A DNA stretch of 64,000 nucleotides, from positions 1 to 64,000 of IMG/VR virus record IMGVR_UViG_3300025887_000010. One strand, written 5' to 3'. Below are positions 4,486-50,341 of this stretch, piece by piece. The notes below the pieces were generated by a model. The model ran no database searches. It worked only from the letters and a program-made list of their open reading frames with translations, and was not told the origin of the DNA. Position numbers and translations under genes: made by a program. Within the stretch, counting starts at the first letter, position 1. Every line of letters begins with the position of its first letter. The stretch is from a virus.

Positions 4486-4489
4486 GAGA

Positions 4490-10973: not shown

Positions 10974-11000
10974 TCTGGAGTCTCCTTTGTTTATAGTTCA

Positions 11001-11029
11001 ATTATAGAATATCGTAGCTCAAAAGTACA
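11001..11029 (-). promoter_or_regulatory. early promoter with full leader
   Basis: TGTACT-N17-TATAAT then GAACTATAAACAAAGGAG. Confidence 0.85.
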
Positions 11030-11958: not shown

Positions 11959-12185
11959 TGTCCATAGCCTTTCTTCACCTTCTCGATCAATTCAATCGAC
12001 GTGATGATTTCGCATTTTGCTTCGATCTCTTTTATTCGACGCTTTGGAATGTCGTAATGCTTGTAGGAGTGATACCAGCAACGTTTGATTCCAAGTTCTT
12101 CCGCCATCCTGTGGAGATTCGCAATCGAATACGGCTCACAGATGAGATGACGTCTTCGATCTGTGAAATAGACGAGATCAATCAT
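11955..12185 (-). CDS. DUF4031-like protein
   Basis: LHRMAEELGIKRCWY...HYDI pattern. Confidence 0.6.
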   Translation of the reverse strand: MIDLVYFTDRRRHLICEPYSIANLHRMAEELGIKRCWYHSYKHYDIPKRRIKEIEAKCEIITSIELIEKVKKGYGQ

Positions 12186-12517
12186 TTTCCATACGGGCTT
12201 TCTGAAAAGAGAGACTCACCAACTTAAATTGTGATAGTTGGTTTGTAGTCATTTGTTATAGTTAGATTATAGACTACAGAAGAATGAAAGTACACTACAG
12301 AGTTTTCTTCCTGAAAGCTATCATTGCAGATTTAAGCTTGTTGAGGTTTTCGATCCTCTTTTCGTGGAATTGATTGACTCGTCAATCATGCAGATTTCGT
12401 TATCAACCATTTCTGTAGATATGGCCATATCGTTTTGGAAGATGTCTCCAAGAGAAGCATCAAGCTTTCTGGACACCTCGAACATTATGCATCTACGCGT
12501 CAACCTACGAGTCAAAA

Positions 12518-12850
12518 TTACTGTTCCTTCATTGAGAGATTGTCGATGATCTCGATCAACGCAATCATGAGCAACGATCTTCCATGACTGTGTTCAGATG
12601 TGTTTGTTCTTCCATTATGGAAAAGCTCAGCAGTCCATGCATCGTCGAATAGAGAAAGCTCGATGGTTGTGCACCCTGGAAGTTCTCTTTTGATGAAATC
12701 GAAGGCAGAATCAGATGATCCCGTGTATGCCTTGTAGGCAAGCATTGCTGATGTCGCACTTGAAAAATAGTGCGCGAAGTCTATAGTGAGAAGTTTGTCA
12801 CCAGCAATGACTCGATTCCTGAGCTCAATGATATCTTCTTTAGTCGTCAT
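12518..12850 (-). CDS. hypothetical protein
   Basis: 110-aa ORF, tightly packed operon. Confidence 0.6.
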   Translation of the reverse strand: MTTKEDIIELRNRVIAGDKLLTIDFAHYFSSATSAMLAYKAYTGSSDSAFDFIKRELPGCTTIELSLFDDAWTAELFHNGRTNTSEHSHGRSLLMIALIEIIDNLSMKEQ

Positions 12851-13064
12851 GTTCTTTATCCTTCATGTCAATAGGAGCTTCCAATTCTGGTCTCCAGTGT
12901 GTTGGTGTAGGCATATCAAATGTGAAGTTTGTGCCGATTATTGAAGTGACATTTTTGGATTTTCTCATCGGGAAGATGTGATTTCCGAATTTAGGAATTT
13001 TAAGCCAAACGAGAAAATTTCCTTCATCAGGAGCAGTCGAAAATGGAAGCCATTCATTGTTCAT
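12840..13064 (-). CDS. DUF551-like small phage protein
   Basis: WLPFSTAP...PTHWRP pattern. Confidence 0.6.
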   Translation of the reverse strand: MNNEWLPFSTAPDEGNFLVWLKIPKFGNHIFPMRKSKNVTSIIGTNFTFDMPTPTHWRPELEAPIDMKDKEHDD

Positions 13065-13960
13065 AGTGTTTTCTCCTTTTCGGAATTTGTGATTTCAATC
13101 AGAAAATCCCTAAATTCATCACCTAGATCGATTCGTTGCAATGCAAGCGAAACAGTTGCCTTCAGAAATCCGATTTTGGATCCGCAATCAAACCTTGTTC
13201 CATCAAATACGAATGGTCTAACTACAACTTTCGGATCGAGAGAGGAAATCTTGCATTGAAGATTGATGGCGTCCGTCAGTTGATACTCTCCACCTGATCC
13301 AGGTTTGATATGACCCAGATGGCTAAGAATCTGAGGATCGAGAATATATCGACCAACAGCTGCAAGATTTGAAGGTGCATTACCAGGCGCAGGCTTTTCA
13401 ACCATTCCTACAGTATTGCCATTGTGAGTGTCCATGACACCATACTTCGAGAGTTCTTCAGGATCGTTCATTCTCATGCATGCGATCATCGTTCCACCAT
13501 CGTAAGCATCAACCATCTGTTTCATACAACCATTATCACCAATCCCATCATTCTGAATGATGTCGTCAGGAAGTATTACTGCAAAAGGTTCGTTCTTGAT
13601 GAGATGTCGAGCACAATAGATTGCATTCCCAAGACCGATCGGATCAGATTGACGAACATAAGCGATAGATCCGCTTTCCATCTCAATACCTTTCAGCATT
13701 TTGAGTATGTCGTCTTTACCCTTGCTGCTCAAAGCCTCATTCAATTCTGGTGATCGATCGAAGTAGTCTTCAAGAGAGCTCTTTCCACGAGAAGTTACAA
13801 AGATGAACTCACTGATTCCTGCTTCTCTCGCTTCATCAATCGCATACTGAATGAGAGGTTGATCGATGAGATTGAGTATCTCTTTTGGAATGGATTTTGT
13901 TGCTGGCAAAAATCGAGTTCCTAGTCCCGCTACGGGGAATACGGCTTTAGTTACCTTCAT
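13061..13960 (-). CDS. galU: UTP--glucose-1-phosphate uridylyltransferase
   Basis: KAVFPVAGLGTRFLPATKSIPKE, RQ..P.GLG.AI, EPFAVILPDD, VEKP, GRYIL, QLTDAI, RFDCGSK.GFL. Confidence 0.97.
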   Translation of the reverse strand: MKVTKAVFPVAGLGTRFLPATKSIPKEILNLIDQPLIQYAIDEAREAGISEFIFVTSRGKSSLEDYFDRSPELNEALSSKGKDDILKMLKGIEMESGSIAYVRQSDPIGLGNAIYCARHLIKNEPFAVILPDDIIQNDGIGDNGCMKQMVDAYDGGTMIACMRMNDPEELSKYGVMDTHNGNTVGMVEKPAPGNAPSNLAAVGRYILDPQILSHLGHIKPGSGGEYQLTDAINLQCKISSLDPKVVVRPFVFDGTRFDCGSKIGFLKATVSLALQRIDLGDEFRDFLIEITNSEKEKTL

Positions 13961-14317: not shown

Positions 14318-15529
14318 CTAGAACCACTCAGTGAATCGAGCTGATTGGCCGTAGGTGGGATGATGCAGGAACACTTCTACACCTTGACGATTTACAAAAC
14401 CAAATTTGCTGTGCCAGCTGTCAGGTGCAGAAGGTGAACGAACGTGTTCCATCTGGAGGTGTGTACCAGACGCAGTGTTTGGAGAACCTGATGAGATCGC
14501 TGTGATTCCGACGTGGTCCTTTTCAGATATGAAAGTGTCGACACCTCTGCGTTGTCGTATCTTGTGGTGAACATGGTGAATGTACGAATAAAGGTGATCA
14601 CATTTGCCGATCAACTGTTTTGCTTCGGAGACGAACAGACCGTAGAGCTTCTCTTCTTTCGCATTGTCGCCATGAGTCAACTGAATCGCATTTTGCTCGA
14701 AGCCATAGTATTTGCGATCGAGCGAGCTCAAGTTGTATTCAGACGCATTGACGGTAGGCCAATTTTCAAATCGCGATGCAATGTCCTGACTGAGACACCA
14801 ACCTGATCGATAGTCGTGGTTTGACATGACGTGCACCAAATCGACATCAGCCACTTTCGCACACTCCTTAATGGCGTCGATAGTTGCAGCCTTTGCGTCA
14901 CTGTAGACCTGAAAAAAGGAACCGTCGGTATCTTGATCGGTTCCTCGTGTGGATCGTTTGCCGTCTTCTGTGTGGAGAATGTCGTTCCCCATTACAAATA
15001 GGATTCGTGAGATGCCAAATGGCTTTGCCTTCTTCAAGAGTGCTTTCGTTCCTTCGATCACTCGGTGACGAGCAACCTGTCGATTGTATACGTATCCAGT
15101 TTCACTCTTTACACAAAGCTTACCGAAGTGTACGTCAGCAAGATCAACAACTAGAAGGTGATCGCCAAGAGCGAGTTCGCTTCGTGGTTCGTAAGGGATT
15201 GCACCATCAGATTTCGAATCATCGATGGCTTGGAGGATCATAGTTTCGAATGATATTTTCTCGTGGGTTTCAGGGTTCTTGATGAACAGACTGTAACCGT
15301 TTCCGTCTTCGTCTTTCTGTATCTGCCAAAAGTGACCTAAATTTCGAGGATCGTCGAGGTTGCCTACTTTCGCAGCCCTTCTGATTTCATCGGGTGCATC
15401 ATTCCATGCTTTAGCCTTTGCAATGTCCCGCTCAACTGACCGAAGTGATATTCCTGTCTTTATACTAATCTCAGCATTTGAGTAACCTTCGGTTCTCAAT
15501 GCATAAGTTTTCTCATAGCGTTTTGTCAT
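14318..15529 (-). CDS. N-terminal HTH plus calcineurin-like metallophosphoesterase
   Basis: G.S.AEIS..TGIS..SVER HTH; DVHFG, GNDILH, SNHD, THGD, HHVHH metal motifs. Confidence 0.75.
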   Translation of the reverse strand: MTKRYEKTYALRTEGYSNAEISIKTGISLRSVERDIAKAKAWNDAPDEIRRAAKVGNLDDPRNLGHFWQIQKDEDGNGYSLFIKNPETHEKISFETMILQAIDDSKSDGAIPYEPRSELALGDHLLVVDLADVHFGKLCVKSETGYVYNRQVARHRVIEGTKALLKKAKPFGISRILFVMGNDILHTEDGKRSTRGTDQDTDGSFFQVYSDAKAATIDAIKECAKVADVDLVHVMSNHDYRSGWCLSQDIASRFENWPTVNASEYNLSSLDRKYYGFEQNAIQLTHGDNAKEEKLYGLFVSEAKQLIGKCDHLYSYIHHVHHKIRQRRGVDTFISEKDHVGITAISSGSPNTASGTHLQMEHVRSPSAPDSWHSKFGFVNRQGVEVFLHHPTYGQSARFTEWF

Positions 15530-19641: not shown

Positions 19642-20616
19642 TCAGTACTTGCGATTGTTTTGCCAAAGCATAGCATGCTCTACCATGTCCTTGATGTTGT
19701 ACTTTCGCTTGAAATCTAAGAGGGAAACAGCACGAGTGCAATCACATACGAGATGGGGTGGATCACCCCGACGAGCATGTTTCGAGTTGACAGATTCGAA
19801 ACGTTTACCCATGACAGATTCCACAATATTCATCAACTGTCTTACGGAAGTTCCATGTTGGCTTCCAAGATTAAAGATACCGGGCACTGGATCAGAGGTG
19901 TCGTTTTTGACCATCGCGGTGATATGCGCATCCACAAGATCGCATACATGAATGTAATCACGTACAGCTGTTCCATCAGCTGTCGGATGGTCGTTACCGA
20001 AAAGATTGAAACGTTCACCAGTTTGAAGTGATCTGATGAGATTTGGAATGAGGTGGGTCTCAGGAAAGTGCGATTCACCAATTTTGCCATCAGGATCAGA
20101 ACCTGCGACATTGAAGTACCGGAAAACAGTCGCGTTGAGGTCATCATGCTGGTATGTCATATTCGCCAGATACATCTCACACGCAAGCTTTGAAGCACCA
20201 TAAGGCGTCAAGGGCTTAGTCGCGTCCATCTCACGAAGACGTTTTTTCGAAGGTGAGTAAACAGCAGCAGTAGAAGAGAATACGATGTTTCGGACACCAT
20301 GAATAATCGAAGCATTGACCACATTCATGAATCCTACCAGATTGTTTGTCCAGTATTCATGCACCATCTCAAAACTTTCAGGTACGATACTCATAGCAGC
20401 AAAGAACATGACTGCATCAGGTTCTTGAGAGCCTATTGTATGGTCAAGCCTCTCAATGTCAAGAATATTGTATGGATATATTCGACAGTTGATAGCATCG
20501 ATGTGACCAGTTGCGAGGTTGTCATATACGATGACTTCATGACCTTGCTCTTCTAATGCTTTGCATGCATGTGAGCCAATGTATCCAGCTCCTCCAAAAA
20601 CCATGACTTTCATCAA
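19642..20616 (-). CDS. galE: UDP-glucose 4-epimerase
   Basis: GGAGYIGSH, FSSTAAVY, YGASK, RYFNVAG, ETHLIP, DGTAVRDYIHV.DL, RRGDP. Confidence 0.96.
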   Translation of the reverse strand: MMKVMVFGGAGYIGSHACKALEEQGHEVIVYDNLATGHIDAINCRIYPYNILDIERLDHTIGSQEPDAVMFFAAMSIVPESFEMVHEYWTNNLVGFMNVVNASIIHGVRNIVFSSTAAVYSPSKKRLREMDATKPLTPYGASKLACEMYLANMTYQHDDLNATVFRYFNVAGSDPDGKIGESHFPETHLIPNLIRSLQTGERFNLFGNDHPTADGTAVRDYIHVCDLVDAHITAMVKNDTSDPVPGIFNLGSQHGTSVRQLMNIVESVMGKRFESVNSKHARRGDPPHLVCDCTRAVSLLDFKRKYNIKDMVEHAMLWQNNRKY

Positions 20617-23895: not shown

Positions 23896-24403
23896 TTTGT
23901 TTTGGGACCTCGGTTTCAGGAAATCGAGTCTCCCACAGTCGATCAAAACTCAGACGGTATTCGAAAACCCGAGCATTGTCACCCAAATTCATTGAAGACC
24001 CAACCTTCCATTCGCTCTCATCGAATTCGAAGTGTGCGTCAGCATCAACGACTTCTGTGTCTACCACTGTTCGAAGTAGACGATTGCATAGAGGAAGGAA
24101 TCTCTTGTAGATTTCTGCTCCTCCGGCAACAACTACGTTGTCATAGTCAGCAAACCAGGCGATAGCTTGTTCAGGAGTGCAGTAGATGACACCATTCTCT
24201 TGTGTACGTTTCTGACTCGTTATGACGACCATGAATCGATCAGCGAGTCGGAAAGGAAGACTTTCGTACGTCTTCCTCCCCATGATGACGATCTTGCCTG
24301 TTGTACTTCGCTTGAAGAACCTCAAGTCTTCAGGAATGTGCCAAGGCAGTTTGCCGTCCTTGCCGATTGCACCATTTCGATCTGTTGCTACGATTGCGAA
24401 CAT
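23873..24403 (-). CDS. frd: dihydrofolate reductase
   Basis: IVATDRNGAIGKDGKLPWHIPEDLRFFK..T.GK.VIMGRKTYESLP, GGAEIY. Confidence 0.96.
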   Translation of the reverse strand: MFAIVATDRNGAIGKDGKLPWHIPEDLRFFKRSTTGKIVIMGRKTYESLPFRLADRFMVVITSQKRTQENGVIYCTPEQAIAWFADYDNVVVAGGAEIYKRFLPLCNRLLRTVVDTEVVDADAHFEFDESEWKVGSSMNLGDNARVFEYRLSFDRLWETRFPETEVPKQRPVNGTR

Positions 24404-25188
24404 CAGACCGCCACCGGAGCTTTGATTGTTGGATGTGGTTCGTATCCAAACAGCACGAAGTTTTCGTACTTGAAGTCGAAGATGGAATCAGGTTTCGAAT
24501 TGATAACCATCATGGGCAATTTTCTCGGTATGCGTGACAGTTGTTCAGCGACTTGATCGAAATGGTTCAAGTAGATGTGAGCATCGCCAATGGAATGGGT
24601 GAATGTGCCAACGCCAAGGCCACAGATTTGAGCAAGCATCTGCTGCAGAAGAGCATATGAAGCGATGTTGAATGGAACGCCGAGGAACATGTCAGCACTG
24701 CGCTGGTACATCAACAGGTCGAGCTTTCCGTTGTTGACTCGGCACTGGAAGAACATGTGGCAAGGAGGCAGACCCATCTTAGACGTTTCAGGTGGGTTCC
24801 AAGCGGAAACGACCATTCGGCGGCTGGCAGGATTCGTCTTCAATTGTTCAACCAGTTCACTGATCTGATCGACGCCACCGAAGTCGCGCCATTGCTTTCC
24901 ATATACGGGACCGAGATCGCCATTCTCATCTGCCCATTCATTCCAGATGCGCACGTGGTTTTCCTGCAGATATCGGATGTTGGTGTCACCCTGAAGGAAC
25001 CAGAGCAACTCGTGAATGATCGCCGGCAAATGAACCCTCTTTGTTGTCAAAAGAGGAAAACCTTTCGACAGATCGAACTTCATCTGTGCACCGAAGACTG
25101 ATTTCGTTCCGACCCCTGTGCGGTCCATGTTTGTGTCTCCTTCCTCCATGATTTGGCGAAGAAGTCGTAGGTATGATGTTTCTGACAT
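24403..25188 (-). CDS. td: thymidylate synthase (ThyA type, no intron)
   Basis: [61 protein letters not shown]. Confidence 0.98.
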
Positions 25189-26912: not shown

Positions 26913-27509
26913 CTACTTTGTCAACATCTTTGCAAAGAATTTGGCGTATCTTTCAAGGATCAGATCGCACAGTGTCGGAACTTCCTCTCTGATTTGCCAA
27001 TTCGTGTTATCGACACCGAAGTCACACTTCATCGAAAGAGCCTCGATGTGCTTCTCAGATTCATGGACTTCGCCTTCAGGTGTTGTCTTCTCATTCGCAA
27101 CGTGAACGAGACAGCCACCAGCATCAAGGATTTTGTCGGCTTCGTTGTGGAAACGTATTCCATCGACCATAAAGACCTTTGCATCGCGAGTCTCCATTGA
27201 CGAAATGCTTCGGTCTATCCAAAGATCGTTATGGATCATGTCGCGACCCCACTCTGTGCCGAGAGTTGTCATCAGTTGACGAGAAGTCTTTCCACCAAAA
27301 TCGTGGAGAGTGTGATCACGCATACGATTGTCATAGACGTTTCCACGAGGAACTCCGAGTGCGATTAGCATGTCATAGATCGGCTGTGAGAAGGAAGCTT
27401 TGTCCACACAATTTGGAAAAGATCGGTGTATTTCGTCGGTGAGAAGTCGTGCGGTCGAGCTTTTGCCAGAGTCTTTGTGGCCAACAAAGCCGATAATCAG
27501 TTTCGCCAT
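26913..27509 (-). CDS. deoxynucleoside monophosphate kinase (T4 gp1-like)
   Basis: IIGFVGHKDSGKS P-loop, RQLM.TLGTEWGR....DLW, DGIRF.NE, H.SE. Confidence 0.9.
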   Translation of the reverse strand: MAKLIIGFVGHKDSGKSSTARLLTDEIHRSFPNCVDKASFSQPIYDMLIALGVPRGNVYDNRMRDHTLHDFGGKTSRQLMTTLGTEWGRDMIHNDLWIDRSISSMETRDAKVFMVDGIRFHNEADKILDAGGCLVHVANEKTTPEGEVHESEKHIEALSMKCDFGVDNTNWQIREEVPTLCDLILERYAKFFAKMLTK

Positions 27510-38517: not shown

Positions 38518-39675
38518 TCAGAAAAGATCGAGAGGGGCGGCAGGAACCTTTGATTTCGAGAGGACTTTCCAGAACTCATCGTACCATGAGTCTTCAGAGA
38601 AGTGCTTGCGTGCAGACTCAGCGATAGACTTTCTGTCATCAAACGATAGTGAGTTGACATATACGAGCTTGATCTTCAGGTCAAGTACCCACTCAGGATC
38701 ATCATATGCGACAGGTTTGACACCAAGGTCCGTCACCTGGTTGATGTAGTGATCGGCAGCATGAGTTTGACCTGCCTTGTCAACGAACGTGATCGGTATT
38801 CCACCAAATAGCAGTGTCTCGATTGCAATCAAACCAAGCGACTCATCGGGTCGAGCGACCAAACATGTCGAGCATTTCTGATACTCGAGCAGAAGCTGAT
38901 CTCTCGTTTCATTGTGATGAAGAACGGTGTTCTCAGATTTGTCGAGAGTCTTGATGATGTTCGGGAAGTCTGCACCGGAGACGTATGCGTCAAATTCGAT
39001 TCCAGCCTTTGCAATCTTTCCGAAATTCTTCTGTGGGTGGCATCGACCGACCATCAACGTTTTGCCTTCATTCGGCACGACATCCATTTCCCAAATCTTC
39101 GGATCCATTGTCGTGTAGACGTCAGCATCGTCAGAAATATAAGTGTGTGGCGGAGGATTGTCCATCGTATCAGAGAACTCGAAATGCTTTGCGCGAATCC
39201 ATGGTGAAGCATAGACTCGGCCACCATTCTCTGTGATGGTCATGCAATTCCTGACGATGCCCTGCAGGAACATCGGACTTGGTATCCAATCTGGGATCAT
39301 ATGGGTCGTTGGAATGAACTTCGAAATGGCAGCTGGAACTGTAGTCGTTGAAGCATTCGACCAACAGAAATCAGGATTGATGATCTTCGCCTGATCAATG
39401 TAGGCCTTTCCGACCCTTCGAGACATGGCGACTGCTTCCTTTGGTCCATGAAGTTCCAACACTTCGTCTCGACTCAACTCACTAACAGAGTGGAATGTCG
39501 CATATTCCAGGAAGACTGGATCAATCTTGCCAGTGCACAGAACGTGAACGTCAATTCCCTTCTTCTTAAGGATTTTGATCCACGAATGCTGACGAGCTTC
39601 GATGCCGTTGCGAGGCTTTCGGTGATCCTTGAACGCACCACCAGTGATGTGAGTCGAGACGATAAGGATTTTCAT
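38518..39675 (-). CDS. GT-B glycosyltransferase (GT4 / T4 alpha-glucosyltransferase-like)
   Basis: MKILIV start; VGRCHPQKNF and ESLGLIAIETLLFGGIP donor-binding motifs. Confidence 0.75.
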   Translation of the reverse strand: MKILIVSTHITGGAFKDHRKPRNGIEARQHSWIKILKKKGIDVHVLCTGKIDPVFLEYATFHSVSELSRDEVLELHGPKEAVAMSRRVGKAYIDQAKIINPDFCWSNASTTTVPAAISKFIPTTHMIPDWIPSPMFLQGIVRNCMTITENGGRVYASPWIRAKHFEFSDTMDNPPPHTYISDDADVYTTMDPKIWEMDVVPNEGKTLMVGRCHPQKNFGKIAKAGIEFDAYVSGADFPNIIKTLDKSENTVLHHNETRDQLLLEYQKCSTCLVARPDESLGLIAIETLLFGGIPITFVDKAGQTHAADHYINQVTDLGVKPVAYDDPEWVLDLKIKLVYVNSLSFDDRKSIAESARKHFSEDSWYDEFWKVLSKSKVPAAPLDLF

Positions 39676-40100
39676 GCACAAATGCCTTTCAGCATTTTGG
39701 AGTCAATAACGTACGACGAAAGATCGGGTGCTTTCCAACCTTCAGGCTTGATGGCATCAGGAAGGCCGAGAGGATTTGGACGACCAGGTTTGACACCAAT
39801 CTCCTTTTCCATATTGGCATCGTGAACCTCGATGAAAGCCCCAAGTGACATATCAGTGCCGATCAGAATGTTGAGAGTTCCGACGTTGAAATATAGACCA
39901 TCGATGAGTGCATCAACAATCTCGGCTGCATCTTTATCTGCGATTGCATTCTTCAGTTCAGTAAGCTCTTCTTCCATCATACGAACACGAAGTTCAATGA
40001 AAGCTTTAAGCTTCTCAGGGTCACTTGCGATCTCGTCGTAGCGGTTAACGTGACCCATCTTTTCATGGAATTCTTCCACTATGTCGAAAATGTTCATCAT
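39672..40100 (-). CDS. MazG-like/PRA-PH NTP pyrophosphohydrolase (candidate dCTPase)
   Basis: EFH..MG...R..MMEEELTE...EIVDALID..Y...G...VHDANM.K...KPEGWKAPDL. Confidence 0.88.
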   Translation of the reverse strand: MMNIFDIVEEFHEKMGHVNRYDEIASDPEKLKAFIELRVRMMEEELTELKNAIADKDAAEIVDALIDGLYFNVGTLNILIGTDMSLGAFIEVHDANMEKEIGVKPGRPNPLGLPDAIKPEGWKAPDLSSYVIDSKMLKGICA

Positions 40101-40357
40101 TCTTTGATCTCCTCTGGTTCATAGACCTTGTCGCCGATATTTGAAATTTGTGTTGTCAGCAAAAATGAATTCGCTGTGAGTTTGTTCTGAAACTGAACGA
40201 ACGATTTCACAAGCTCTGTGATGACAGGTGGCTCATTACCATCCAGAGCTTGAACTATCGTTCCGAGAGTGCTCGAAAGATTTTCGTTCAGTTCATCGAT
40301 TCCAAGGCTAGTATCGCGCAGCCTTGCGACGATCGTTTGCATTTCTTCAGGGCTCAT
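40097..40357 (-). CDS. hypothetical helical protein
   Basis: AGGA RBS, overlap. Confidence 0.55.
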   Translation of the reverse strand: MSPEEMQTIVARLRDTSLGIDELNENLSSTLGTIVQALDGNEPPVITELVKSFVQFQNKLTANSFLLTTQISNIGDKVYEPEEIKE

Positions 40358-40368
40358 CCTATTTCCTT

Positions 40369-41253
40369 TCAGAGAAATTTGTCATAGGCTTTTTCGATCG
40401 AGAACGACTCGTTACCGAAGTGTTCATGGACCTTTGCGATCTCGTCGATTGTGGTCTTCTTATAGTCGCCGAGGAAGACTTCGAATGGCTTCGCTCCAGG
40501 CTGCTTCGTTTCGGTCATCGTATCAATTCCCATCAAGATCATTCCGAAATCGATGCGAATGTCTGTCATCTCCTCAAACGCCATCGCGTAAAGCGATATT
40601 TGACGTTTGTATCCACCAATGTCTTTCGCAGACTTCTCTTTGCGAGACGATTTGAAGTCGATCAGTGTGATGAGACCATTGAACTCGACATCGTATGCTC
40701 CTCCATCCTTGTTCAAAACGCCTTCGAGTGTGTAGTCCTCGTCGTATTCCCCAATACAGTCAACTCTACCAGCAATCTGAAGAACATCCGAATAGAGAGC
40801 ATGCTCCAAACAGTGAACGTTGTCGATTTTGTCGAGGTATGGACGAAGCTTCCTGAATAGACTCCATCCTCGCATGTGAGTGTCTTTGACGACCTCATTT
40901 CGAATGTAGAGTTCGGCCATATCGTGCATCGACGTACCACGAGTTCGGGCCTCATGACTGACGCGATCGGCTTCTTCTTCACCAACAGCATCTCTCCAAG
41001 CCTGAAGCCAACCATTCTCACCCTGAAGATCAGCAATCTGACCGAGTATCGTCGTTGCAGATGGATATGCGCGTTTCTCAGGATTGTCGTCAGTTGGTGG
41101 AATGATGTAGTAGCGCCCAGGGAATTTGCCTTCCTTGTACGCGTCGATGTTATGCACGTCTTTGCGAAATTTGAACTGATCCCAGTCGTGAGTGAATGGG
41201 ACCAGTCTTGGTTGTTGCTCAGCCGACTCTCTGAATTTCTTGAAAATACTCAT
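40369..41253 (-). CDS. PD-(D/E)xK (Cas4-like) exonuclease
   Basis: YPSATTIL, WR..VGEEEA, RGT.MH, AGRVDCI, IDFKSS, Q...YA. Confidence 0.88.
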   Translation of the reverse strand: MSIFKKFRESAEQQPRLVPFTHDWDQFKFRKDVHNIDAYKEGKFPGRYYIIPPTDDNPEKRAYPSATTILGQIADLQGENGWLQAWRDAVGEEEADRVSHEARTRGTSMHDMAELYIRNEVVKDTHMRGWSLFRKLRPYLDKIDNVHCLEHALYSDVLQIAGRVDCIGEYDEDYTLEGVLNKDGGAYDVEFNGLITLIDFKSSRKEKSAKDIGGYKRQISLYAMAFEEMTDIRIDFGMILMGIDTMTETKQPGAKPFEVFLGDYKKTTIDEIAKVHEHFGNESFSIEKAYDKFL

Positions 41254-41260
41254 GGTCTAG

Positions 41261-41752
41261 CTATATCACATCCTGCTCATCTTGTACAACAGTTTTTGGA
41301 TGAGGAATACGATGAGGATACGGTTTTGGTGGACACATGAAGTACGAGACATTCTCTTCGAAGTTCCGATTGTGTTGAATCATCCAATCTTCTTGACCTT
41401 TCTCCTTGAGGTGCTTGTTGATATCAGAGATCATCATACTGACGGTGCTCAGATCAGAACCGGACTCGAAAAGGGTGTCGTAGAACATGTTCGACCACAT
41501 CACATCTTTGCAACGACCATCAGGTGCGCACAACCAAAGATGTGAAAAGAGTCGGCGTTTGCGAATGACCTTCATTGAAATTCTACTATTTTTCGGAATG
41601 CCCATACCAAAGTTCGGATCGATTCCGATATTTATCAGCGCCATTTTGGTATGTTCGCTCATTTCGAGATGATACTCTAGAAGATTGAGAGCGTAATCCA
41701 CCTTCATCAGATCGTTTGGTAACTTGTTGATTTCGTCTTCGTACGGTCTCAT
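41261..41752 (-). CDS. hypothetical protein in the glf operon
   Basis: ATGA coupling to glf. Confidence 0.55.
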   Translation of the reverse strand: MRPYEDEINKLPNDLMKVDYALNLLEYHLEMSEHTKMALINIGIDPNFGMGIPKNSRISMKVIRKRRLFSHLWLCAPDGRCKDVMWSNMFYDTLFESGSDLSTVSMMISDINKHLKEKGQEDWMIQHNRNFEENVSYFMCPPKPYPHRIPHPKTVVQDEQDVI

Positions 41753-42786
41753 TTGAAGTCCTCTGCTGCTCGCATTGCTGAATTGACAGCTTGATCCATA
41801 TCTAAATAGGCATAAAGACCAAGGCGACCAATGAAGGTTATCGAGTATGGCCGCGCCATCTTCTTGTATTTTTCGTAGAGCTTACGATTCTCTCCGTCCA
41901 CATCTTTGACAGGATAGAATTTGCGATCACCATTTTCTTCAGCAGCACATGGCTCTTCCCACATTACGGCAGATGTTTCGGACGATCCATAGCTATTCGG
42001 AAGCTTCGACCACTCTGTGATCCGTGTGTATGGGCCAGTGTTAGTGAAGTTCACTGTTGCAGCCTGGAGAACATTCTCGAGTGGGAGTGTTGCATGATGG
42101 AACTTGAGAGAACGATACGGAAGGTGTCCATGGATGTAGTTGAAATACTCATCGATAGGCATCGAATTGAAAATCCAGTCCGCACTTGCGATGAAATCAC
42201 CACCGTATCCAGTTTTACCAAACTCCATAAAGTCGCAACCTGTCATAACATTGATGTTCTCATGATCGAGCATGTTTTCAACCATTTTGGTGTATCCATC
42301 CTTAGGAAGCACCTGAATGTCGTCGTTTGGGAAGTACAGCTCATTCATATCGTCACGAATGGGAACACGATTCATGATGCTCGGACTCACCCTTTCAAGT
42401 GACATTCCCCACATCTTCTCGGTGTAAGGACGGAAGAAGATGTCGATAACGTTTTCTTCGCCGACGATTTCTTTCGTTTCCTTGTTCACAGGAAGCGTGA
42501 CAAGACGTCCATCTTCAAGAAGAGCTTTGACCTTGTGCTCATATTTCACCCATTCCGTGAATCGGCTCAGAAACTCGAAGACTTTGACGTTGTTCGTGTG
42601 GAACAGGTGAGGACCATATTTGTGGATTCGATGTCCGTCATCGATCACATAATCAAAAGCGTTGCCGGCAACATGGTCACTCTTCTCCATGACGACGATT
42701 TTGTGTCCCTTTTCAGCGAGAAGACGAGCAACTGTTGATCCTGAAAGTCCTGCTCCGACGACAATGAATTTGCATTTTTTGCTCAT
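41749..42786 (-). CDS. glf: UDP-galactopyranose mutase
   Basis: VGAGLSG FAD motif, GN..D...HKYGPHLFHT, YTEKMWG, R.P.R...YF, P.DGYT, LPYRSL, TRITE, FYP, GRLG.Y.Y.DMDQ.V. Confidence 0.95.
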   Translation of the reverse strand: MSKKCKFIVVGAGLSGSTVARLLAEKGHKIVVMEKSDHVAGNAFDYVIDDGHRIHKYGPHLFHTNNVKVFEFLSRFTEWVKYEHKVKALLEDGRLVTLPVNKETKEIVGEENVIDIFFRPYTEKMWGMSLERVSPSIMNRVPIRDDMNELYFPNDDIQVLPKDGYTKMVENMLDHENINVMTGCDFMEFGKTGYGGDFIASADWIFNSMPIDEYFNYIHGHLPYRSLKFHHATLPLENVLQAATVNFTNTGPYTRITEWSKLPNSYGSSETSAVMWEEPCAAEENGDRKFYPVKDVDGENRKLYEKYKKMARPYSITFIGRLGLYAYLDMDQAVNSAMRAAEDFK

Positions 42787-43898
42787 TTGCGTGCATCCAA
42801 AATTTTCTGGAGTTCTTCACGTTGAACTCGTTTCGTAAGTGGGTGTTTCTCATAGAGGCAGTCTTTCTGTGCTTTCGCAAGAGCAACTAGACCAGCTGTA
42901 TCGAGACCCTCGATTTTGTCGGCAGTGAGGTTTTCGTACGCTTCACCGTAGACTTCAGCTTCTTTCTGATCACAAAGCAGAATCGATCCTGCATCAGCAA
43001 CTTGAAGCGGACGGGCACGCCACCAACCAGAGCCAGCATGGCTGTACGCAGGCATCAGGCAACCCCATTGTTTGTTAAAGATGCGACACATTTCGGTCTC
43101 AGTGACTCGTTCGCATTTGTATTCGCCACGTGATGCACCGAAGAAGTTCACCTTCCATTCGACCTTCTTGCTCTTCATCCACTTACGTGTCTTGTTATGA
43201 ACGAGAGATGCGAAGTTCCATTCACGAAGCTTTTTCTCAGGACGAATGCCAATGGTGTCAGGCTCATCGAACATGTCAAGATCAGTGTCGTTTTCGAGAC
43301 CGAAATTGTTGTCAGGTCGACGATTTAGGTGGTACGGATTTGGGTTGTATGTGAAGACACGCTCACTTGGCCATTCGAGACTCAAGAGACTCAGATCGCC
43401 ACCAGCAAATGCGCTCATCAGAAGGCGATTCTTGCCATTGACAATGCTGTCGCAAGCATCCTTGTAGAACGATTCGTACTTCTGCACTTCCTCGAGTGAC
43501 TCCTTGCCACCCCAGTTCGACCACAGATAGTCGCGATAGCCATTTCCTTCTTCGAGCTGCTTCTTGTAGCCGATGATGTCTTTGAAGATACCAGGGAATT
43601 GCCAATCATCGAAAGCAACAATGCAATCTGGGCGAGCGCCGATAGCATACAGACCTGACCACAGATACTGTGTGAAGGCTGCTGTTGGGTGGACGATCGC
43701 AATCACGTCCTCATACTCGGAAAGGTCTTCGCCCAGTTTGACGACTCGTTGTTCGACTTCGTATCCCATTGCTTCGAGACCATTCACGAGTGAGTAGTGC
43801 GAAGGAACGATCTGCAAGCGAAGAAAAGCCGAGTGTGCATTTCGGTTGCATTGAGCTTTGTTCATTCCGGTGACGAGGATTTTCGGTTTTGCAGTCAT
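42783..43898 (-). CDS. putative DNA (5hmC) glycosyltransferase, T4 beta-glucosyltransferase-like fold
   Basis: KILVTGMN, VPSHYSL, FDDW, VNFFGA, WWRARPLQVADAGSILLCD resemble T4 BGT motifs (VPSSE, TD, IEFFG, LRVWETMASDAVMLID); coupled to glf; own early promoter 43932-43960. Confidence 0.7.
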   Translation of the reverse strand: MTAKPKILVTGMNKAQCNRNAHSAFLRLQIVPSHYSLVNGLEAMGYEVEQRVVKLGEDLSEYEDVIAIVHPTAAFTQYLWSGLYAIGARPDCIVAFDDWQFPGIFKDIIGYKKQLEEGNGYRDYLWSNWGGKESLEEVQKYESFYKDACDSIVNGKNRLLMSAFAGGDLSLLSLEWPSERVFTYNPNPYHLNRRPDNNFGLENDTDLDMFDEPDTIGIRPEKKLREWNFASLVHNKTRKWMKSKKVEWKVNFFGASRGEYKCERVTETEMCRIFNKQWGCLMPAYSHAGSGWWRARPLQVADAGSILLCDQKEAEVYGEAYENLTADKIEGLDTAGLVALAKAQKDCLYEKHPLTKRVQREELQKILDARK

Positions 43899-43944
43899 AG
43901 GTATCTCCATAGAGGTTTTGTTCTTAAGTTCAGTGTATCACAAT

Positions 43945-44184
43945 TTAGCCAGCTTGTACACAGTCAATGCCATGTTTTTGCCATCTAATTGTCTCGATGG
44001 CATTCGCAAACACTTCGTGTTCGTTCATCTCGAAAAGGAGTTTCTCACGAAGTGGATGCTCGAAGTCTTCGACATCGGTACAGTGATTGCGGAAAATGTA
44101 TTGTCCGAATCTCACATTATTGTCGGCAGATTTCCACGCACGGAAAACTTCAACGAGTTCGGAATAGGTCTCAATCTTTAGCAT
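43945..44184 (-). CDS. hypothetical protein
   Basis: RFGQY pattern; overlaps the upstream stop. Confidence 0.55.
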   Translation of the reverse strand: MLKIETYSELVEVFRAWKSADNNVRFGQYIFRNHCTDVEDFEHPLREKLLFEMNEHEVFANAIETIRWQKHGIDCVQAG

Positions 44185-44797
44185 CAGGTAGATCCAGGTC
44201 AAAGTATTCAAGTTCTTTCAGGGTGATGAACTGTGTATTTTGCCTCTTCTCACGGCGAGAAATATGATGATGACCACCAATCCAATAGTCGGGTTGATGA
44301 ATTTCGAAAAGCTCCTGAAGTATCTCGCGAGTGTTTGTGATTTCATGACCGAATTGATCTTCGACATACGATTGTGGAAAGTCGTGTGAGATGACCACTC
44401 GAGGCTTCGCAATTTCGTAACGGGTAAGTATGCTGAGAAACTTGTCTTCAGTGACTTCCTCATCAGGCCACCAATTTATGCCTGGTATAAGAACCTTTCC
44501 AGGATTGTCAGGCGTTTTCGCACCGCCGAAGTAGAAGATTGAGCGTTTCCTGTCGTAGTAGCCGTCTGAGATGTAGTTTCCCATTCCTTCAGCAATTTGT
44601 GGGTGGTCATGATTGCCTCTAATAAACAAATGACTGGGATTCTTGTTTACCCATTGAACGATTTCCACCATTTCATGCGGTCTGAAAAAACCGAATCCAA
44701 AGTCGCCAACCTGAATAGAGTTCTCAACGACTTCTGCAATTTCAAAGTATTCCTGAAACTTAGCGTGGACATCGCCAATAATTCGGACTTTGGTCAT
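44171..44797 (-). CDS. calcineurin-like metallophosphoesterase
   Basis: IGDVH, QVGDFG, RGNHD, SHDFP, GHHH. Confidence 0.92.
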   Translation of the reverse strand: MTKVRIIGDVHAKFQEYFEIAEVVENSIQVGDFGFGFFRPHEMVEIVQWVNKNPSHLFIRGNHDHPQIAEGMGNYISDGYYDRKRSIFYFGGAKTPDNPGKVLIPGINWWPDEEVTEDKFLSILTRYEIAKPRVVISHDFPQSYVEDQFGHEITNTREILQELFEIHQPDYWIGGHHHISRREKRQNTQFITLKELEYFDLDLPDAKD

Positions 44798-44870
44798 ATT
44801 GATCTCCTATTTCTTAATTCATGATATCACATTTCGTGCATGATGTACATAGTAAAGTGACTGTTGCCTC

Positions 44871-44975
44871 GTTAAACCTGGAGCTCGCTGAGTCTTACGA
44901 TCGTATTGACAATATAATATACATCAAACGACAAAGAGGAACTCAGCGATTCACTGAGTTCCCCTGGTTAGATCA
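44871..44975. repeat. quasi-palindromic intergenic element, copy B
   Basis: core TTGACAATATAATATACATCAA (44906-44927); CGCTGAGT/ACTCAGCG arms; GGAACTCAG/CTGAGTTCC hairpin. Confidence 0.75.
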
Positions 44976-45021
44976 AGGTTGTCAATCTTGTCTTACATAT
45001 TTCAGAACAAACTTTCGAAGA

Positions 45022-45050
45022 ATTATATCATAGTGGAGGCTATAAGTACA
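45022..45050 (-). promoter_or_regulatory. early promoter pointing into element B with no ORF downstream
   Basis: TGTACT-N17-TATAAT. Confidence 0.8.
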
Positions 45051-45116
45051 TAACCTTTATCAAACTTTTTGACATTTCAAAGAAAGATTTGGTCTTCTTC
45101 ATTCCACGTTTTCCAA

Positions 45117-45491
45117 CTACTTCTTTGTGCCTGGAGCAGAGGAGGTCAAGTGTTCCTCCGTCTCTTCGAGATACTCAAAGCTTCCATCAGTTGCTTCAAA
45201 GTTTCCCTTCAAAATCATCGACTTGATCCATTCTTCGTTAAGAAAACGATCGAAACAATCGATGATTTGACCATGAAGATGTGCAAAGGGTGAACAGAAG
45301 ATGATTCGATTCTGGTGGTATCTCGCAAAGAACCGAACATCTGCAATCTCGAATGAGACAAAGTCGACATTGCGGTTCAAATAGCCTTCAAGCTGAGAAT
45401 TCGTGCGATAATAGGAATGGAGAGGTACTCCAGAGATGTCGAGTGCAGTTCCGTCATCAGCAATGGTGACGTTTTTGTTGTAATGTCTCAT
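45117..45491 (-). CDS. hypothetical protein
   Basis: ATGA overlap. Confidence 0.55.
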   Translation of the reverse strand: MRHYNKNVTIADDGTALDISGVPLHSYYRTNSQLEGYLNRNVDFVSFEIADVRFFARYHQNRIIFCSPFAHLHGQIIDCFDRFLNEEWIKSMILKGNFEATDGSFEYLEETEEHLTSSAPGTKK

Positions 45492-46093
45492 TTTTGGACC
45501 TTTTTAATTACGTTGAGCACCTTCTTAGAGAATGCGTATTGATCTTCGAGTCGTAGGGATTGGCGAAGAATTCGGTAAGCTCTCTTCGAAAGCAGCCCTT
45601 TCTCCTTCCGCAGTTCGCTGAGATCGACTTCTTCGACCTCACTGTGATACTTCATGGCAGACAGAATCGAAAGTTCACCAGAGATAACGCCATTCACAAT
45701 TCCGGTTTTGCCGTTCTTTTCGACGAGATTTGGCATCGCTCGAAAAGAATCACGAAGGAACATAAAGTTTTCCTCATGATCTGATTGTACGAACGATTGG
45801 TAGATGTCATGCAATTTGTCGACGACACTCGTTGAAACCTCGCTGTCGTAAATGTGAGGCATGTTCGAAGTCTTCGCGATGTTGTTGATGAAGAAGAACG
45901 CAAAGTAATACTCGTCGTTCATCTTCCTTACGATCTGCTTCAGGTTACGCTGTGCAAATCCTCTCTGTGCAGTCGACATCTTCGGATACTTGAACCTAGG
46001 AACGAGTTCCTGGTCGAGAGGAAGATCATGGTCTGCCACGAAGATCATTCGATATCCGTGAGCAGACCGAAAGAGATCATTCTTATCAGCCAT
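45488..46093 (-). CDS. divergent helicase loader (gp59-like)
   Basis: about 200 aa helical protein; FFINNIA and VISGELS resemble gp59 FISNLV and LQSNIIS; near gp33. Confidence 0.45.
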   Translation of the reverse strand: MADKNDLFRSAHGYRMIFVADHDLPLDQELVPRFKYPKMSTAQRGFAQRNLKQIVRKMNDEYYFAFFFINNIAKTSNMPHIYDSEVSTSVVDKLHDIYQSFVQSDHEENFMFLRDSFRAMPNLVEKNGKTGIVNGVISGELSILSAMKYHSEVEEVDLSELRKEKGLLSKRAYRILRQSLRLEDQYAFSKKVLNVIKKVQK

Positions 46094-46799
46094 CGTCGTT
46101 CACGCGGATCGCCAAACCATTGTTGGTGGTCCATAGTGTGTGATAGCCGTATTTCGCGAGATGCTCCTTGACAGCACGTGCACTCTTCGTCACTCGATTG
46201 CCTTCGAAGTAGATGATAGAAGGACGAATCTTGTTCCAGTCGGTTGCAATGATTGCGTCGGCGTCTTCACCTTCGATATCAATCTGGATGATATCGGGTT
46301 GAGTCCCAGACGCGTTCACGAGAGACTCAATGGTCTGAGTCTTGAAGTTGAACTTCTCGATTGCGTCTTCGGCCTGGTCTTCTGGGTTCTGACGTGCTTG
46401 ATGGAACCAGTTTCGCAACTTCCCATAATGGATTGTTGAGACGCCGAGTGGTGCACGATATTCAGGCCAATCAGGTTTCGAGTATGTCCGTGCAACCTTC
46501 GACCAATATTCCTCCTTGATGCAAAAGATTTCGACATCTTCACCATCTGTCGACGAAACGATTGAAGGGATGATCTCGAAATCTTCATAGTCGATTTCAG
46601 CCATGTGATTGCGGATGATAGGATGAAGTGACGAGATTGGCTCGACGAGAATCAAGCTTGAGCGGTCTCGAAGTTGAGGAAGAATGCCGTAAAGCGGATC
46701 GTTGTATTTCGCATCATTTGCGCCGATGACCATCAAATCCAAATACGATTTCGAAGTCAAAAGAGTCATTATGGCTGCGTAGTATGGTGTCGTTCTCAT
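46086..46799 (-). CDS. FkbM-family SAM-dependent methyltransferase
   Basis: VIGANDA, LVEP, IQIDIEGED..I, RP.II.FE. Confidence 0.82.
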   Translation of the reverse strand: MRTTPYYAAIMTLLTSKSYLDLMVIGANDAKYNDPLYGILPQLRDRSSLILVEPISSLHPIIRNHMAEIDYEDFEIIPSIVSSTDGEDVEIFCIKEEYWSKVARTYSKPDWPEYRAPLGVSTIHYGKLRNWFHQARQNPEDQAEDAIEKFNFKTQTIESLVNASGTQPDIIQIDIEGEDADAIIATDWNKIRPSIIYFEGNRVTKSARAVKEHLAKYGYHTLWTTNNGLAIRVNDDG

Positions 46800-47044
46800 G
46801 ATATGTCCAGTTCTATGTGAGTGGATTTCGATTGCTTGAGCAAGTTGTTCTTTCTGGCTTCAGCAGAAACCCGTTCGATGAATGTTTGGGAGAACTTCAC
46901 CGTTTTGTGAATTTCCTCGTAATCTACATCGTGTTGCTCGCAGTAGTCCACAGCAGCATCAAAGAGTGAGTCGAACTCATTATCCGAGAAGTGCTGTAAG
47001 ATTTTCTGCTCGAAGTCAGATACGGTTTTTGGTGATGCACCCAT
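46796..47044 (-). CDS. gp33: late transcription coactivator
   Basis: FDAAVDYCEQHDVDYE..K...S..F.E.V.AEA...NLLK. Confidence 0.85.
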   Translation of the reverse strand: MGASPKTVSDFEQKILQHFSDNEFDSLFDAAVDYCEQHDVDYEEIHKTVKFSQTFIERVSAEARKNNLLKQSKSTHIELDIS

Positions 47045-47727
47045 TACGAGGGATCAGGAATGAGATTGAAGTTGCGCTCATAGAAGTGCATGTTCTGCAC
47101 TTGCCAGTGAAGTGTACCGATCTCTAGATCGAAGTCAAAAAGTGTGTGTGCATTCAAATCACAGACAAGCATGCTCATGACATGTATCTGCCATGCACGA
47201 TCATTTCGATATCCAGCCCAGGCATCGTTCGAACGCATTTGAACTACAGCATGAAGCTTACCATCACGAATCTGGTAGGAAACAGCATTGGTGCAGATAA
47301 AGTCAGACATACCGTTGTGAGCATACTCGACCCAAATAGATGGACGGTTGTAGATCATGACGGCTCGACGTGAACTCGGATTTTTCGCAAGTTCCTCTAA
47401 AACTTTGGCGTATTGATGATGGTATAACGGCGAAAAGATCAGCAATCCGTAATTGGAGTTGATGAGACCGTCACTGGATGAGATGTCTTGCCAGATTTTT
47501 GGAACGATGTCGTAATATCTACCGATATCGTTAACAGAACGACTCATCGATTCGTACCAATCGATTTCGGCATCGATGTATTTCGTGTTAAGATCACCGA
47601 ATATGGTTGCTTCATCAGCTTCAAACGATGCTCCGAGGATTTCGATTACGTTCGTTCCACCGAGATTGACGATGTCACCAGCAGCTTTCTTCTCGATGAA
47701 TAGGTTACGGATATCTTGTACGTTCAT
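47044..47727 (-). CDS. gp42: dCMP hydroxymethylase
   Basis: colinear with T4 gp42: IEILGASF.ADE..IFG, PKIWQ, INSNYG, NPSSRR..MIY.RPS, GMSDFICTN (catalytic Cys), MRSND, GYRND (dCMP-specifying Asp). Confidence 0.95.
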   Translation of the reverse strand: MNVQDIRNLFIEKKAAGDIVNLGGTNVIEILGASFEADEATIFGDLNTKYIDAEIDWYESMSRSVNDIGRYYDIVPKIWQDISSSDGLINSNYGLLIFSPLYHHQYAKVLEELAKNPSSRRAVMIYNRPSIWVEYAHNGMSDFICTNAVSYQIRDGKLHAVVQMRSNDAWAGYRNDRAWQIHVMSMLVCDLNAHTLFDFDLEIGTLHWQVQNMHFYERNFNLIPDPS

Positions 47728-48116
47728 TGGACGCTCTCCTCTTCTTCTGACAATTTGCGATTGAAGACATCAGCCTGTAGGTCTTGGCCGTCGATCTCTC
47801 TGTTGATGAACGCAGCCATGAAGCTTGCGTAGTTGACCATATCCATCAGGGTGTCTTCGACGGATTCGAAAACTGGAGCGTTATTGTTCGATTCCCATGT
47901 TTCGATCAGTGACTGAAGCCGAAGCTTCTTCGCATGGATGATCTCTTCGATCGTCTTGATGCCTGACGGATAATAGTCAGCTTGCTTGACGCGAGAGTTT
48001 GGATTTTGGTAATCCTGACCCTTGAGTCGTTGAAGTTCGATGCATTTCTGCAGGAACATAACCGAGTAGCGCTCTTTCGATACGCCGATGGCTTCGAGTC
48101 GGTTGGTTGTAGACAT
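47724..48116 (-). CDS. nucleotide-modification-associated domain 1 (DUF1599-like) protein
   Basis: ELQ..KGQDY...YYP.G...I..K..R...FESVEDTL.D..NYASF; coupled to gp42. Confidence 0.82.
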   Translation of the reverse strand: MSTTNRLEAIGVSKERYSVMFLQKCIELQRLKGQDYQNPNSRVKQADYYPSGIKTIEEIIHAKKLRLQSLIETWESNNNAPVFESVEDTLMDMVNYASFMAAFINREIDGQDLQADVFNRKLSEEEESVQ

Positions 48117-49636: not shown

Positions 49637-50341
49637 CTACTCAGAAGATTGCTTCTTGAGGATAAGTTTCAAAATTTGATCGACAGTCTGGACACTTTCG
49701 ACCTCGTGATCGTCGATTTCAAGTTCGAAATCTTCCTCGATGAGTATATGGATTTCGACACAATCCAAACTGTCAGCTCCCAAATCAGTGTGGATGTCTG
49801 AATTGGGGTGAACGAGATCGATATCAACCATGAGATGGCTTGCGAGAATACTTTTGATACGGGTAAGAAGACTGTCGTTTTCGACTTCCTTCACTGGTTT
49901 ATCATCAGTGATTGTCATCGGGATGATCGACGATTCACGATCTCCGAAAATATATAGGTTTGGGTTCTTCCAGCGAGCTTCGAATTCCTCGTTCGGAATG
50001 TAGAAGATGCGATCAATCCCAGCTTTGAATAGCTTGGAGATGCATCCTCCACATGGGAAACCAGTTACGTAGGCATCACATCCTTCGACACGAGTACCGA
50101 ATTGAGCAGCATTCAGGAGTGCATTCTCTTCAGCGTGGATTGAAAAGACAAGACGATCGTCGCGTTGTAGATTTTCAACTGCGTCATCATCGATACCTGG
50201 ACAATTTCCATTCCATCCAGTAGAGATGATGTGGTGTGACTTGGAGGCAATAACACATCCAACATGAGCACCGTTATGTTTCGAATTTTGCGATGCAAGA
50301 GATGCAACACACATTGGGTAGGTTGTGATGCTCTTCATCAA
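49637..50341 (-). CDS. cd: dCMP deaminase fused to a C-terminal acyl carrier protein
   Basis: HVGCVI..ISTGWNG, HAEENA, PCGGC; C-terminal RIKSILA.HL...DLGADSLDCVEI...EEDFELEI.D.E.E...TV.QI. Confidence 0.9.
   Translation of the reverse strand: MMKSITTYPMCVASLASQNSKHNGAHVGCVIASKSHHIISTGWNGNCPGIDDDAVENLQRDDRLVFSIHAEENALLNAAQFGTRVEGCDAYVTGFPCGGCISKLFKAGIDRIFYIPNEEFEARWKNPNLYIFGDRESSIIPMTITDDKPVKEVENDSLLTRIKSILASHLMVDIDLVHPNSDIHTDLGADSLDCVEIHILIEEDFELEIDDHEVESVQTVDQILKLILKKQSSE

Follow-up and report, generated by a model that had tools for sequence, protein, structure and literature searches.

Which base does an uncultured T4-like phage modify in its DNA, and which sugar does it attach there? The question is raised by a group of genes at positions 38518 to 48116 of a 64,000-nucleotide stretch of viral DNA (the window), which makes up the first 64 kb of the 126,862-bp IMG/VR virus record IMGVR_UViG_3300025887_000010. 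An initial annotation proposed that the phage makes 5-hydroxymethylcytosine (hmC) with an enzyme like T4 gp42 and then glycosylates it from UDP-galactofuranose (UDP-Galf) of its own making. Our analysis supports this central proposal through the active-site signature of the hydroxymethylase, its linkage to a glycosyltransferase and the occurrence of the transferase and a UDP-galactopyranose mutase (Glf) in both gene orders. On balance, we lean towards hmC DNA that is glycosylated with galactofuranose (Galf) as the base-linked sugar, an interpretation supported by comparative genomics rather than by chemistry. As initially annotated, all genes of the module lie on the minus strand, at the coordinates given below. 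The window encodes T4-type core proteins (gp23, the gp20 portal, scaffold, gp32, gp46/47-like and gp33-like proteins, and ligase), and its major capsid protein is closest, at 52 to 53% identity, to those of the Pootjesviridae, a group of Rhizobium and Sinorhizobium myophages to which RL38J1 belongs. A megablast search with the region gave zero matches at the DNA level among 50,697 phage records. The source is an uncultured T4-like phage that is distant kin of the Rhizobium phages.

The gene at 47044 to 47727 (minus strand) encodes a 227-amino-acid gp42-type dCMP hydroxymethylase, the predicted 5-hydroxymethyl-dCMP (5hm-dCMP) synthase, with a match to PF00303 and 49 to 51% identity to T4 gp42. 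We aligned it with T4 gp42, RB69 gp48, RL38J1 gp216 and the window's own thymidylate synthase, using the numbering of Escherichia coli ThyA. The Cys of the DFICTN motif aligned with the catalytic Cys (C146) and the Asp of GYRND with N177, the dCMP-selecting position, so both residues were as first annotated. The window enzyme reads SDFICT...MRSNDAWAGYRND, with Asp at the positions of L143, D169 and N177, as in T4 gp42 (the D/D/D signature). By the criteria of Lee et al. (Nucleic Acids Research [NAR] 2026, PMC13326640), Asp at N177 indicates dCMP selection and an acidic residue at L143 a hydroxymethyl product, and Asn at the D169 position is diagnostic of 5-hydroxy-dCMP synthases; the thymidylate synthase homologs of RB69, DLP3 and RL38J1 make 5-hydroxy-dCMP, not 5hm-dCMP (PMC13326640). 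RB69 gp48 and RL38J1 gp216 read EYPCT...MRSQN... (the D169N type), whereas the window enzyme has RSND, and gp216 used as a tblastn query found no match in this genome. Because of the D/D/D signature at 143/169/177, the enzyme is predicted to make 5hm-dCMP, and we regard hmC as very probably the modified base. The enzyme is also distinct from the normal thymidylate synthase, as the annotation had held: a separate canonical ThyA is encoded at 24403 to 25188 (minus strand; PF00303, 391 bits), and its residues at positions 143, 169 and 177 are Leu, Asp and Asn.

The candidate hmC-DNA galactofuranosyltransferase is a 371-amino-acid enzyme of the GT-B glycosyltransferase fold encoded at 42783 to 43898 (minus strand), singled out by its fold match to T4 beta-glucosyltransferase (BGT) and its linkage to the gp42-type gene. 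Its sequence had no Pfam hit at an E value below 0.01 (including PF09198), no NCBIfam hit and no meaningful match among the chains of the PDB, and we found 667 homologs in public metagenome data. An AlphaFold model built from 32 homologs was confident (predicted local distance difference test score [pLDDT], 90; predicted template modeling score [pTM], 0.88), and its top Foldseek match was T4 BGT (1j39; E value, 3e-6). With VIA-align, the model superimposed on BGT with a Z score of 18.6 and a root mean square deviation of 3.6 over 299 of 351 residues; T4 alpha-glucosyltransferase (AGT), SenB, glycogen synthase and other GT-B enzymes scored about 2 units lower (Z, ~16). An invariant FDDWQ motif (D97 and D98) follows strand 4, at about the place expected for a counterpart of D100, the catalytic Asp of BGT, and may supply that residue. 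The structural half of the proposed kinship with T4 BGT was thus upheld, and the profile half was not (hhalign probability, 7%). Given the structural match and the nonsignificant profile comparison, the predicted structure of the transferase is BGT-like, yet the protein is outside the BGT sequence family (PF09198, CAZy GT63). The transferase family likewise showed no significant hhalign similarity to RL38J1 gp215 or RB69 gp47. Matches in Gordonia phages were confined to the C-terminal domain, at 25 to 29% identity, and were not used.

The transferase gene is coupled to that of Glf by an ATGA stop/start overlap, which agrees with the annotation. The early promoter that had been ascribed to the transferase was not recovered: a consensus scan found no sigma-70-like promoter upstream of the gene, and by eye only TGTACA-N17-TACACT was seen there. 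Farther upstream, a terminator-like hairpin with a 14-bp stem (44935 to 44965, minus strand) is followed by a promoter-like TGTACA-N17-TATCAT (44821 to 44849, minus strand), and the two separate the gene string of the hydroxymethylase from a Metallophos gene and the string of the transferase.

Glf itself (41749 to 42786, minus strand) is a short form of UDP-galactopyranose mutase (UGM) of 345 amino acids that matched PF03275 with an E value of 5e-55 and 187 bits, against a cut-off of 26 bits. It matched UGMs in the PDB with an E value of 8e-71, and we aligned it with 3hdq and 1wam (the UGMs of Deinococcus radiodurans and Klebsiella pneumoniae). Compared with the solved enzymes, it retains the flavin adenine dinucleotide motif GaGlsG (GxGxxG), the segments GPHlfHt, YRs and GRlglYaYlDmd, which are conserved substrate-site motifs, and a loop Arg; the catalytic residues presumably lie among these. 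The Glf homologs of other phages are also short (about 336 amino acids in C48C1, 332 in the record L038 described below and 354 in Aeromonas phages), and the solved bacterial enzymes have 367 to 400 amino acids. Genes for the preceding steps of donor supply are present elsewhere in the window, as annotated. A UDP-glucose 4-epimerase, GalE, is encoded at 19642 to 20616 (minus strand; PF01370) and passes its equivalog cut-off (TIGR01179, 310 bits against 262), and a GalU-like UTP-glucose-1-phosphate uridylyltransferase is encoded at 13061 to 13960 (minus strand; PF00483), with TIGR01099 as its best match but a score under the cut-off (285 bits against 327). The GalU-like gene adjoins an open reading frame (ORF) of 403 amino acids (14318 to 15529, minus strand), the N terminus of which resembles sigma-70 region 4 (PF08281; E value, 2e-5, just below the cut-off). 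The record yielded no member of the GT2 family.

In an IMG/VR scan, relatives of the transferase turned up at 261 loci, of which we analyzed the best 80. By tblastn, 74 of the 75 loci that could be assessed had a gp42-like gene in the same orientation as the transferase and 0 to 3 kb upstream of it; in five of the six loci without such a gene, the contig ended less than 700 bp upstream, which leaves 75 for the count. All 73 scorable hydroxymethylase copies of the relatives had the D/D/D signature. Of the 78 loci that could be assessed for Glf, 44 had this gene directly downstream of the transferase, and 16 relatives had a GalE-like gene in the interval from the hydroxymethylase to the transferase. 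Farther upstream, a DUF1599 gene directly preceded the hydroxymethylase in 59 of the 80 relatives, and a MazG-like gene was found upstream of it in 41. The survey of gp42, glf and transferase co-occurrence that the annotation had suggested thus confirmed that the association recurs in 80 related contigs and goes beyond chance. In some relatives, the genes for the hydroxymethylase, GalE, the transferase and Glf form a single contiguous operon. In L038, a 150-kb record estimated to be 91% complete, overlapping genes encode, in this order, MazG, DUF1599, the hydroxymethylase, a dCMP deaminase, an ORF, a GalE-like protein, the transferase, Glf and a C5-methyltransferase-like protein.

The transferases that lack an adjoining Glf formed one clade in a maximum-likelihood tree (quick IQ-TREE search; Shimodaira-Hasegawa-like approximate likelihood ratio test [SH-aLRT] support, 100), and therefore a single loss of Glf explains the pattern: one loss sufficed on the tree, against a mean of 17.9 changes when Glf presence was shuffled. 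Five long Glf-bearing relatives had neither a GalU homolog nor a homolog of RL38J1 gp151, a second transferase described below, and hence the BGT-like enzyme is the sole transferase seen beside Glf in them.

We also observed that a gene of about 400 amino acids resembling C5-cytosine DNA methyltransferases directly followed the transferase, or the transferase-Glf pair, in 77 of the 80 loci (for example, L038 positions 12100 to 13299; PF00145; E value, 1e-18). In the Glf-less relatives it had been guessed to be UvsX, from the position of the T4 beta-gt gene; blastp rejected this identity and assigned it to the C5-cytosine methyltransferases. Such a gene is odd for phages that are predicted to replace C with hmC, and the record of the window has no copy of it.

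Beyond these relatives, the same pair was found in very distant phages. In the opposite order, with Glf preceding the transferase, it is present in Aeromonas Tulaneviruses (25, Aes012, phiAS4 and others), Stenotrophomonas phage IME13 and Erwinia phage FBB1, at identities of 27 to 29% and 37 to 38% to the pair of the window, and gp42-type enzymes with the D/D/D signature are also present in Aes012 and FBB1. Aeromonas phage 25 was recorded in a 2010 review as having gene 42 but no glucosyltransferase homolog, and its modification was listed as unknown (PMC2993671). Phage C48C1 (OQ984149.1, positions 7580 to 11027) encodes a Tet_JBP dioxygenase (472 amino acids; E value, 3e-17), then a homolog of the transferase and then Glf, the latter two at 36% and 48% identity; no thymidylate synthase homolog was found in C48C1, and its arrangement looks like a postreplicative route to the same predicted sugar modification. 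In Morganella phage Rgz1 (OK499989.1), gp40 (positions 3995 to 5062) is a full-length member of the transferase family (hhalign, 99.5%) flanked by genes for arabinose-5-phosphate isomerase and NDP-sugar synthase in an RB69-like arabinosylation cluster; the thymidylate synthase homolog of Rgz1 is of the D169N type. RB69 has no transferase at the position of Rgz1 gp40. The family is therefore found beside three kinds of enzymes that add an oxygen handle to a pyrimidine, which argues strongly that the acceptor of the transferase is a modified base in DNA. The same linkage to gp42-type, TET/JBP and D169N enzymes suggests that handle and sugar modules are assembled in different combinations among phages.

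In the window, the transferase heads a string of seven close or overlapping genes on one strand, which encode the transferase, Glf, an ORF of 163 amino acids, a PD-(D/E)XK nuclease, an ORF of 86 amino acids, a MazG-like protein and a second transferase. The 163-amino-acid ORF (41261 to 41752, minus strand) is overlap-coupled to Glf and had no Pfam or PHROG match, with only weak winged-helix-like hints in a protein atlas, and the nuclease (40369 to 41253, minus strand) was assigned by PF12705 (E value, 1e-4). The MazG/PRA-PH-like NTP pyrophosphatase (39672 to 40100, minus strand; PF01503; E value, 1.5e-9) is a candidate dCTPase analogous to T4 gp56; it matched the MazG-like NTP pyrophosphohydrolase DR2231 and shares 38% identity with RL38J1 gp218. 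The last gene of the string (38518 to 39681, minus strand) encodes a GT4-like glycosyltransferase homologous to RL38J1 gp151 (phrog_30124; E value, 2e-44), a candidate for the addition of a second sugar. The annotation had treated this gene separately; its identity as a second transferase stands, and it belongs to the same gene string as the BGT-like transferase. Its family is small: tblastn against a phage collection gave matches in Pootjesviridae only, including gp151, an exhaustive search recovered 9 representatives among 1.84 billion proteins, and a word-based homolog search returned only the protein itself and one sister protein. RL38J1 gp151 is the candidate "glucosyltransferase 2" of Lee et al. 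(PMC13326640), and, by this homology, a disaccharide of Galf plus a hexose is plausible.

Upstream of the hydroxymethylase and overlap-coupled to it is a DUF1599/Nmad1 helical protein (47724 to 48116, minus strand; PF07659; E value, 8e-5, below the cut-off). Its model was a helical bundle (pLDDT, 83) for which Foldseek found no PDB match below an E value of 0.7, with MazG-like entries among the insignificant rows only; a dCTPase role for this protein is conjectural. An FkbM family methyltransferase (46086 to 46799, minus strand; PF05050; E value, 1.7e-6) is encoded between the gp33-like gene and the next ORF; the gene was absent from the 80 relatives, a sister contig, L100, has no gene at this position, and O-methylation of a sugar by its product is speculative. 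L100 otherwise has the same layout at 58 to 65% identity, with an ORF of 287 amino acids at the position of the nuclease. It carries an additional gene of 326 amino acids (7285 to 8265) with no Pfam hit directly after Glf that the window does not have. A deoxynucleoside monophosphate (dNMP) kinase analogous to T4 gp1, an activity that the phosphorylation of hm-dCMP would require, is encoded at 26913 to 27509 (minus strand; PF21448; 35% identity to RL38J1 gp219). At 49637 to 50341 (minus strand), the window has an apparent fusion of a deaminase to an acyl carrier protein (dCMP deaminase type at residues 7 to 117 and acyl carrier protein at residues 155 to 231, by NCBIfam); in L038, a gene located between those of the hydroxymethylase and the GalE-like protein encodes a deaminase alone.

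Taken as one pathway, these genes would act in the following way. Before replication, the MazG-like pyrophosphatase would lower dCTP and the gp42-type enzyme would convert dCMP to 5hm-dCMP, which the dNMP kinase and host kinases would raise to hm-dCTP for incorporation by the polymerase. In parallel, the GalU-like enzyme would yield UDP-glucose, GalE would convert it to UDP-galactopyranose and Glf would contract the ring to give UDP-Galf. After replication, the BGT-like transferase would attach Galf to hmC in DNA through the hydroxymethyl group; a further hexose would probably be added by the gp151-like enzyme, and FkbM might act as a sugar methyltransferase. In our judgment, glycosylation of hmC in DNA by the BGT-like enzyme is likely, and, given an hmC base glycosylated in this way, UDP-Galf is the probable donor. 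A more elaborate version would make the BGT-like enzyme the first galactofuranosyltransferase of the GT-B fold, acting on DNA to form beta-Galf-hmC, with extension by the gp151-like enzyme and possible O-methylation by FkbM giving a methylated hexose-Galf disaccharide on every cytosine, and with a sugar toolkit common with the Pootjesviridae for which the handle was swapped from 5-hydroxy to 5-hydroxymethyl; we consider this full version quite unlikely.

The main competitor to a Galf attached to the base is that the BGT-like enzyme puts a pyranose, either glucose or galactopyranose, on hmC and that UDP-Galf serves a later step, such as the addition of a second sugar by the gp151-like enzyme. 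The donor of T4 BGT, to which the transferase is structurally closest, is UDP-glucose; a whole clade of the transferase family does without Glf; and the window provides a GalU-like gene besides a second transferase. However, the five long Glf-bearing relatives have no gp151-like transferase that could take up such a donor, and Glf and the BGT-like gene are neighbors, in one order or the other, even in very distant phages, so we rate a pyranose on the base as rather unlikely. The sugar itself could instead be another furanose if the mutase uses a different UDP-sugar, for example, UDP-arabinopyranose or UDP-N-acetylgalactosamine. The mutase is a divergent short form under its equivalog cut-off, and one member of the transferase family sits in an arabinofuranose cluster; yet the GalE of the window and the GalE-like genes of 16 relatives point to UDP-galactose, and no arabinose-nucleotide genes were seen among the annotated ORFs, which makes a furanose other than Galf very improbable.

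Two further alternatives concern the acceptor. The sugar genes might act off the DNA, on virion proteins or host surface glycans, and leave hmC bare or otherwise modified, as might be argued from the presence of Glf in Streptococcus and Lactobacillus phage records and from the location of GalU and GalE far from the cluster amid unknown early genes. Such a role is distinctly improbable in view of the three unrelated contexts (gp42-type, Tet_JBP and the D169N arabinose cluster) in which the transferase lies beside a base-hydroxymethylating or -hydroxylating enzyme, its transcription with early nucleotide metabolism genes and its best fold match, which is a DNA glucosyltransferase. Alternatively, the thymidylate synthase homolog might make 5-hydroxy-dCMP, as in RB69 and RL38J1, with the sugar ether-linked directly to C5. 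The capsid does place the phage closest to the Pootjesviridae, of which RL38J1 uses 5-hydroxycytosine (PMC13326640), but the enzyme lacks D169N, has the T4 gp42 signature at 49 to 51% identity, and comes from a genome in which gp216 has no tblastn match; we hold a 5-hydroxy handle to be extremely improbable.

Several observations count against Galf-hmC as we propose it. To our knowledge, no galactofuranosyltransferase of the GT-B fold has been characterized, and the known galactofuranosyltransferases are GT-A enzymes. The transferase has no detectable sequence kinship with T4 BGT, and its donor may not be fixed across the family, since one clade works without Glf. Glf scored 290 bits against TIGR00031, just under the NCBI equivalog cut-off of 304, and lacks about 34 to 38 midprotein residues that are present in the solved UGMs. 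A distance of 3 kb that includes the terminator-like hairpin separates the hydroxymethylase from the transferase in the window. Additionally, the record is only 83% complete by the CheckV estimate.

If Galf-hmC is correct, hmC joins 5-hydroxycytosine as a handle for furanoses, and a hexofuranose is added to the chemistry of hmC-based DNA modification. The modification would then be a variant, as yet only predicted, of the sugars by which T4 hides its DNA from host nucleases. DNA coated in this way might evade type IV enzymes specialized for glucosyl-hmC, and it would offer a new test substrate to tools that tell DNA modifications apart. The main interest is that the module is widespread, modular and testable in cultured phages (Aeromonas 25, Aes012 and phiAS4 and Erwinia FBB1). 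The annotation had stated that no Galf-hmC pathway is characterized. Our search of a literature library found no report of Galf on hmC, which agrees with this statement; the implied lack of any precedent was overstated, given that Lee et al. propose phage UDP-Galf as the donor for galactosyl-5-hydroxycytosine in RL38J1 (NAR 2026, PMC13326640) and that Aeromonas and Erwinia phages carry the set of hmC, Glf and transferase genes.

Among known systems, the glucosyl-hmC pathway of the T-even phages (in T4, the gp56 dCTPase, gp42, gp1, and alpha- and beta-glucosyltransferases) is similar in having a gp42-type enzyme with the same signature, a dNMP kinase, a pyrophosphatase, for which the window has an all-alpha candidate, and a GT-B transferase of the BGT fold. 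It differs in that the transferase of the window has no sequence relation to BGT or AGT and is joined by a second, unrelated transferase. The transferase is also coupled to a UDP-galactopyranose mutase, and therefore the predicted sugar is galactofuranose rather than glucose. RL38J1 and the Pootjesviridae resemble the window in their sugar and nucleotide genes (about 34% identity for Glf and 26% for the gp151-like transferase, besides gp218 and gp219 as given above), and their capsid proteins are the nearest among cultured phages; in RL38J1 DNA, 5-hydroxycytosine bears a base-proximal galactose extended by one or two glucoses (PMC13326640). In contrast to the gp42-type enzyme of the window, RL38J1 gp216 is a D169N 5-hydroxy-dCMP synthase, and its base-proximal gp215 has no tblastn match in the genome of the window and no hhalign similarity to the BGT-like family.

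Arabinofuranose on cytosine has been shown in RB69 and DLP3 (PMC13326640), and these systems share with the proposed one a furanose on a C5-modified cytosine, a UDP-furanose donor and GT-B enzymes (PMC13326640); Rgz1 has a transferase of the window type inside such a cluster. They differ in using a pentose from a dedicated arabinose-5-phosphate route, a 5-hydroxy handle and other first transferases, RB69 gp47 being dissimilar. The phage TET/5mYOX-glycosyltransferase clusters (bioRxiv 10.1101/2023.12.21.572611) are comparable by way of C48C1, which pairs Tet_JBP, a postreplicative source of hmC, with a homologous transferase and Glf. The preprint mentions neither a mutase nor a furanose, and, unlike those clusters, the phage of the window would reach hmC before replication, by the thymidylate synthase family route.

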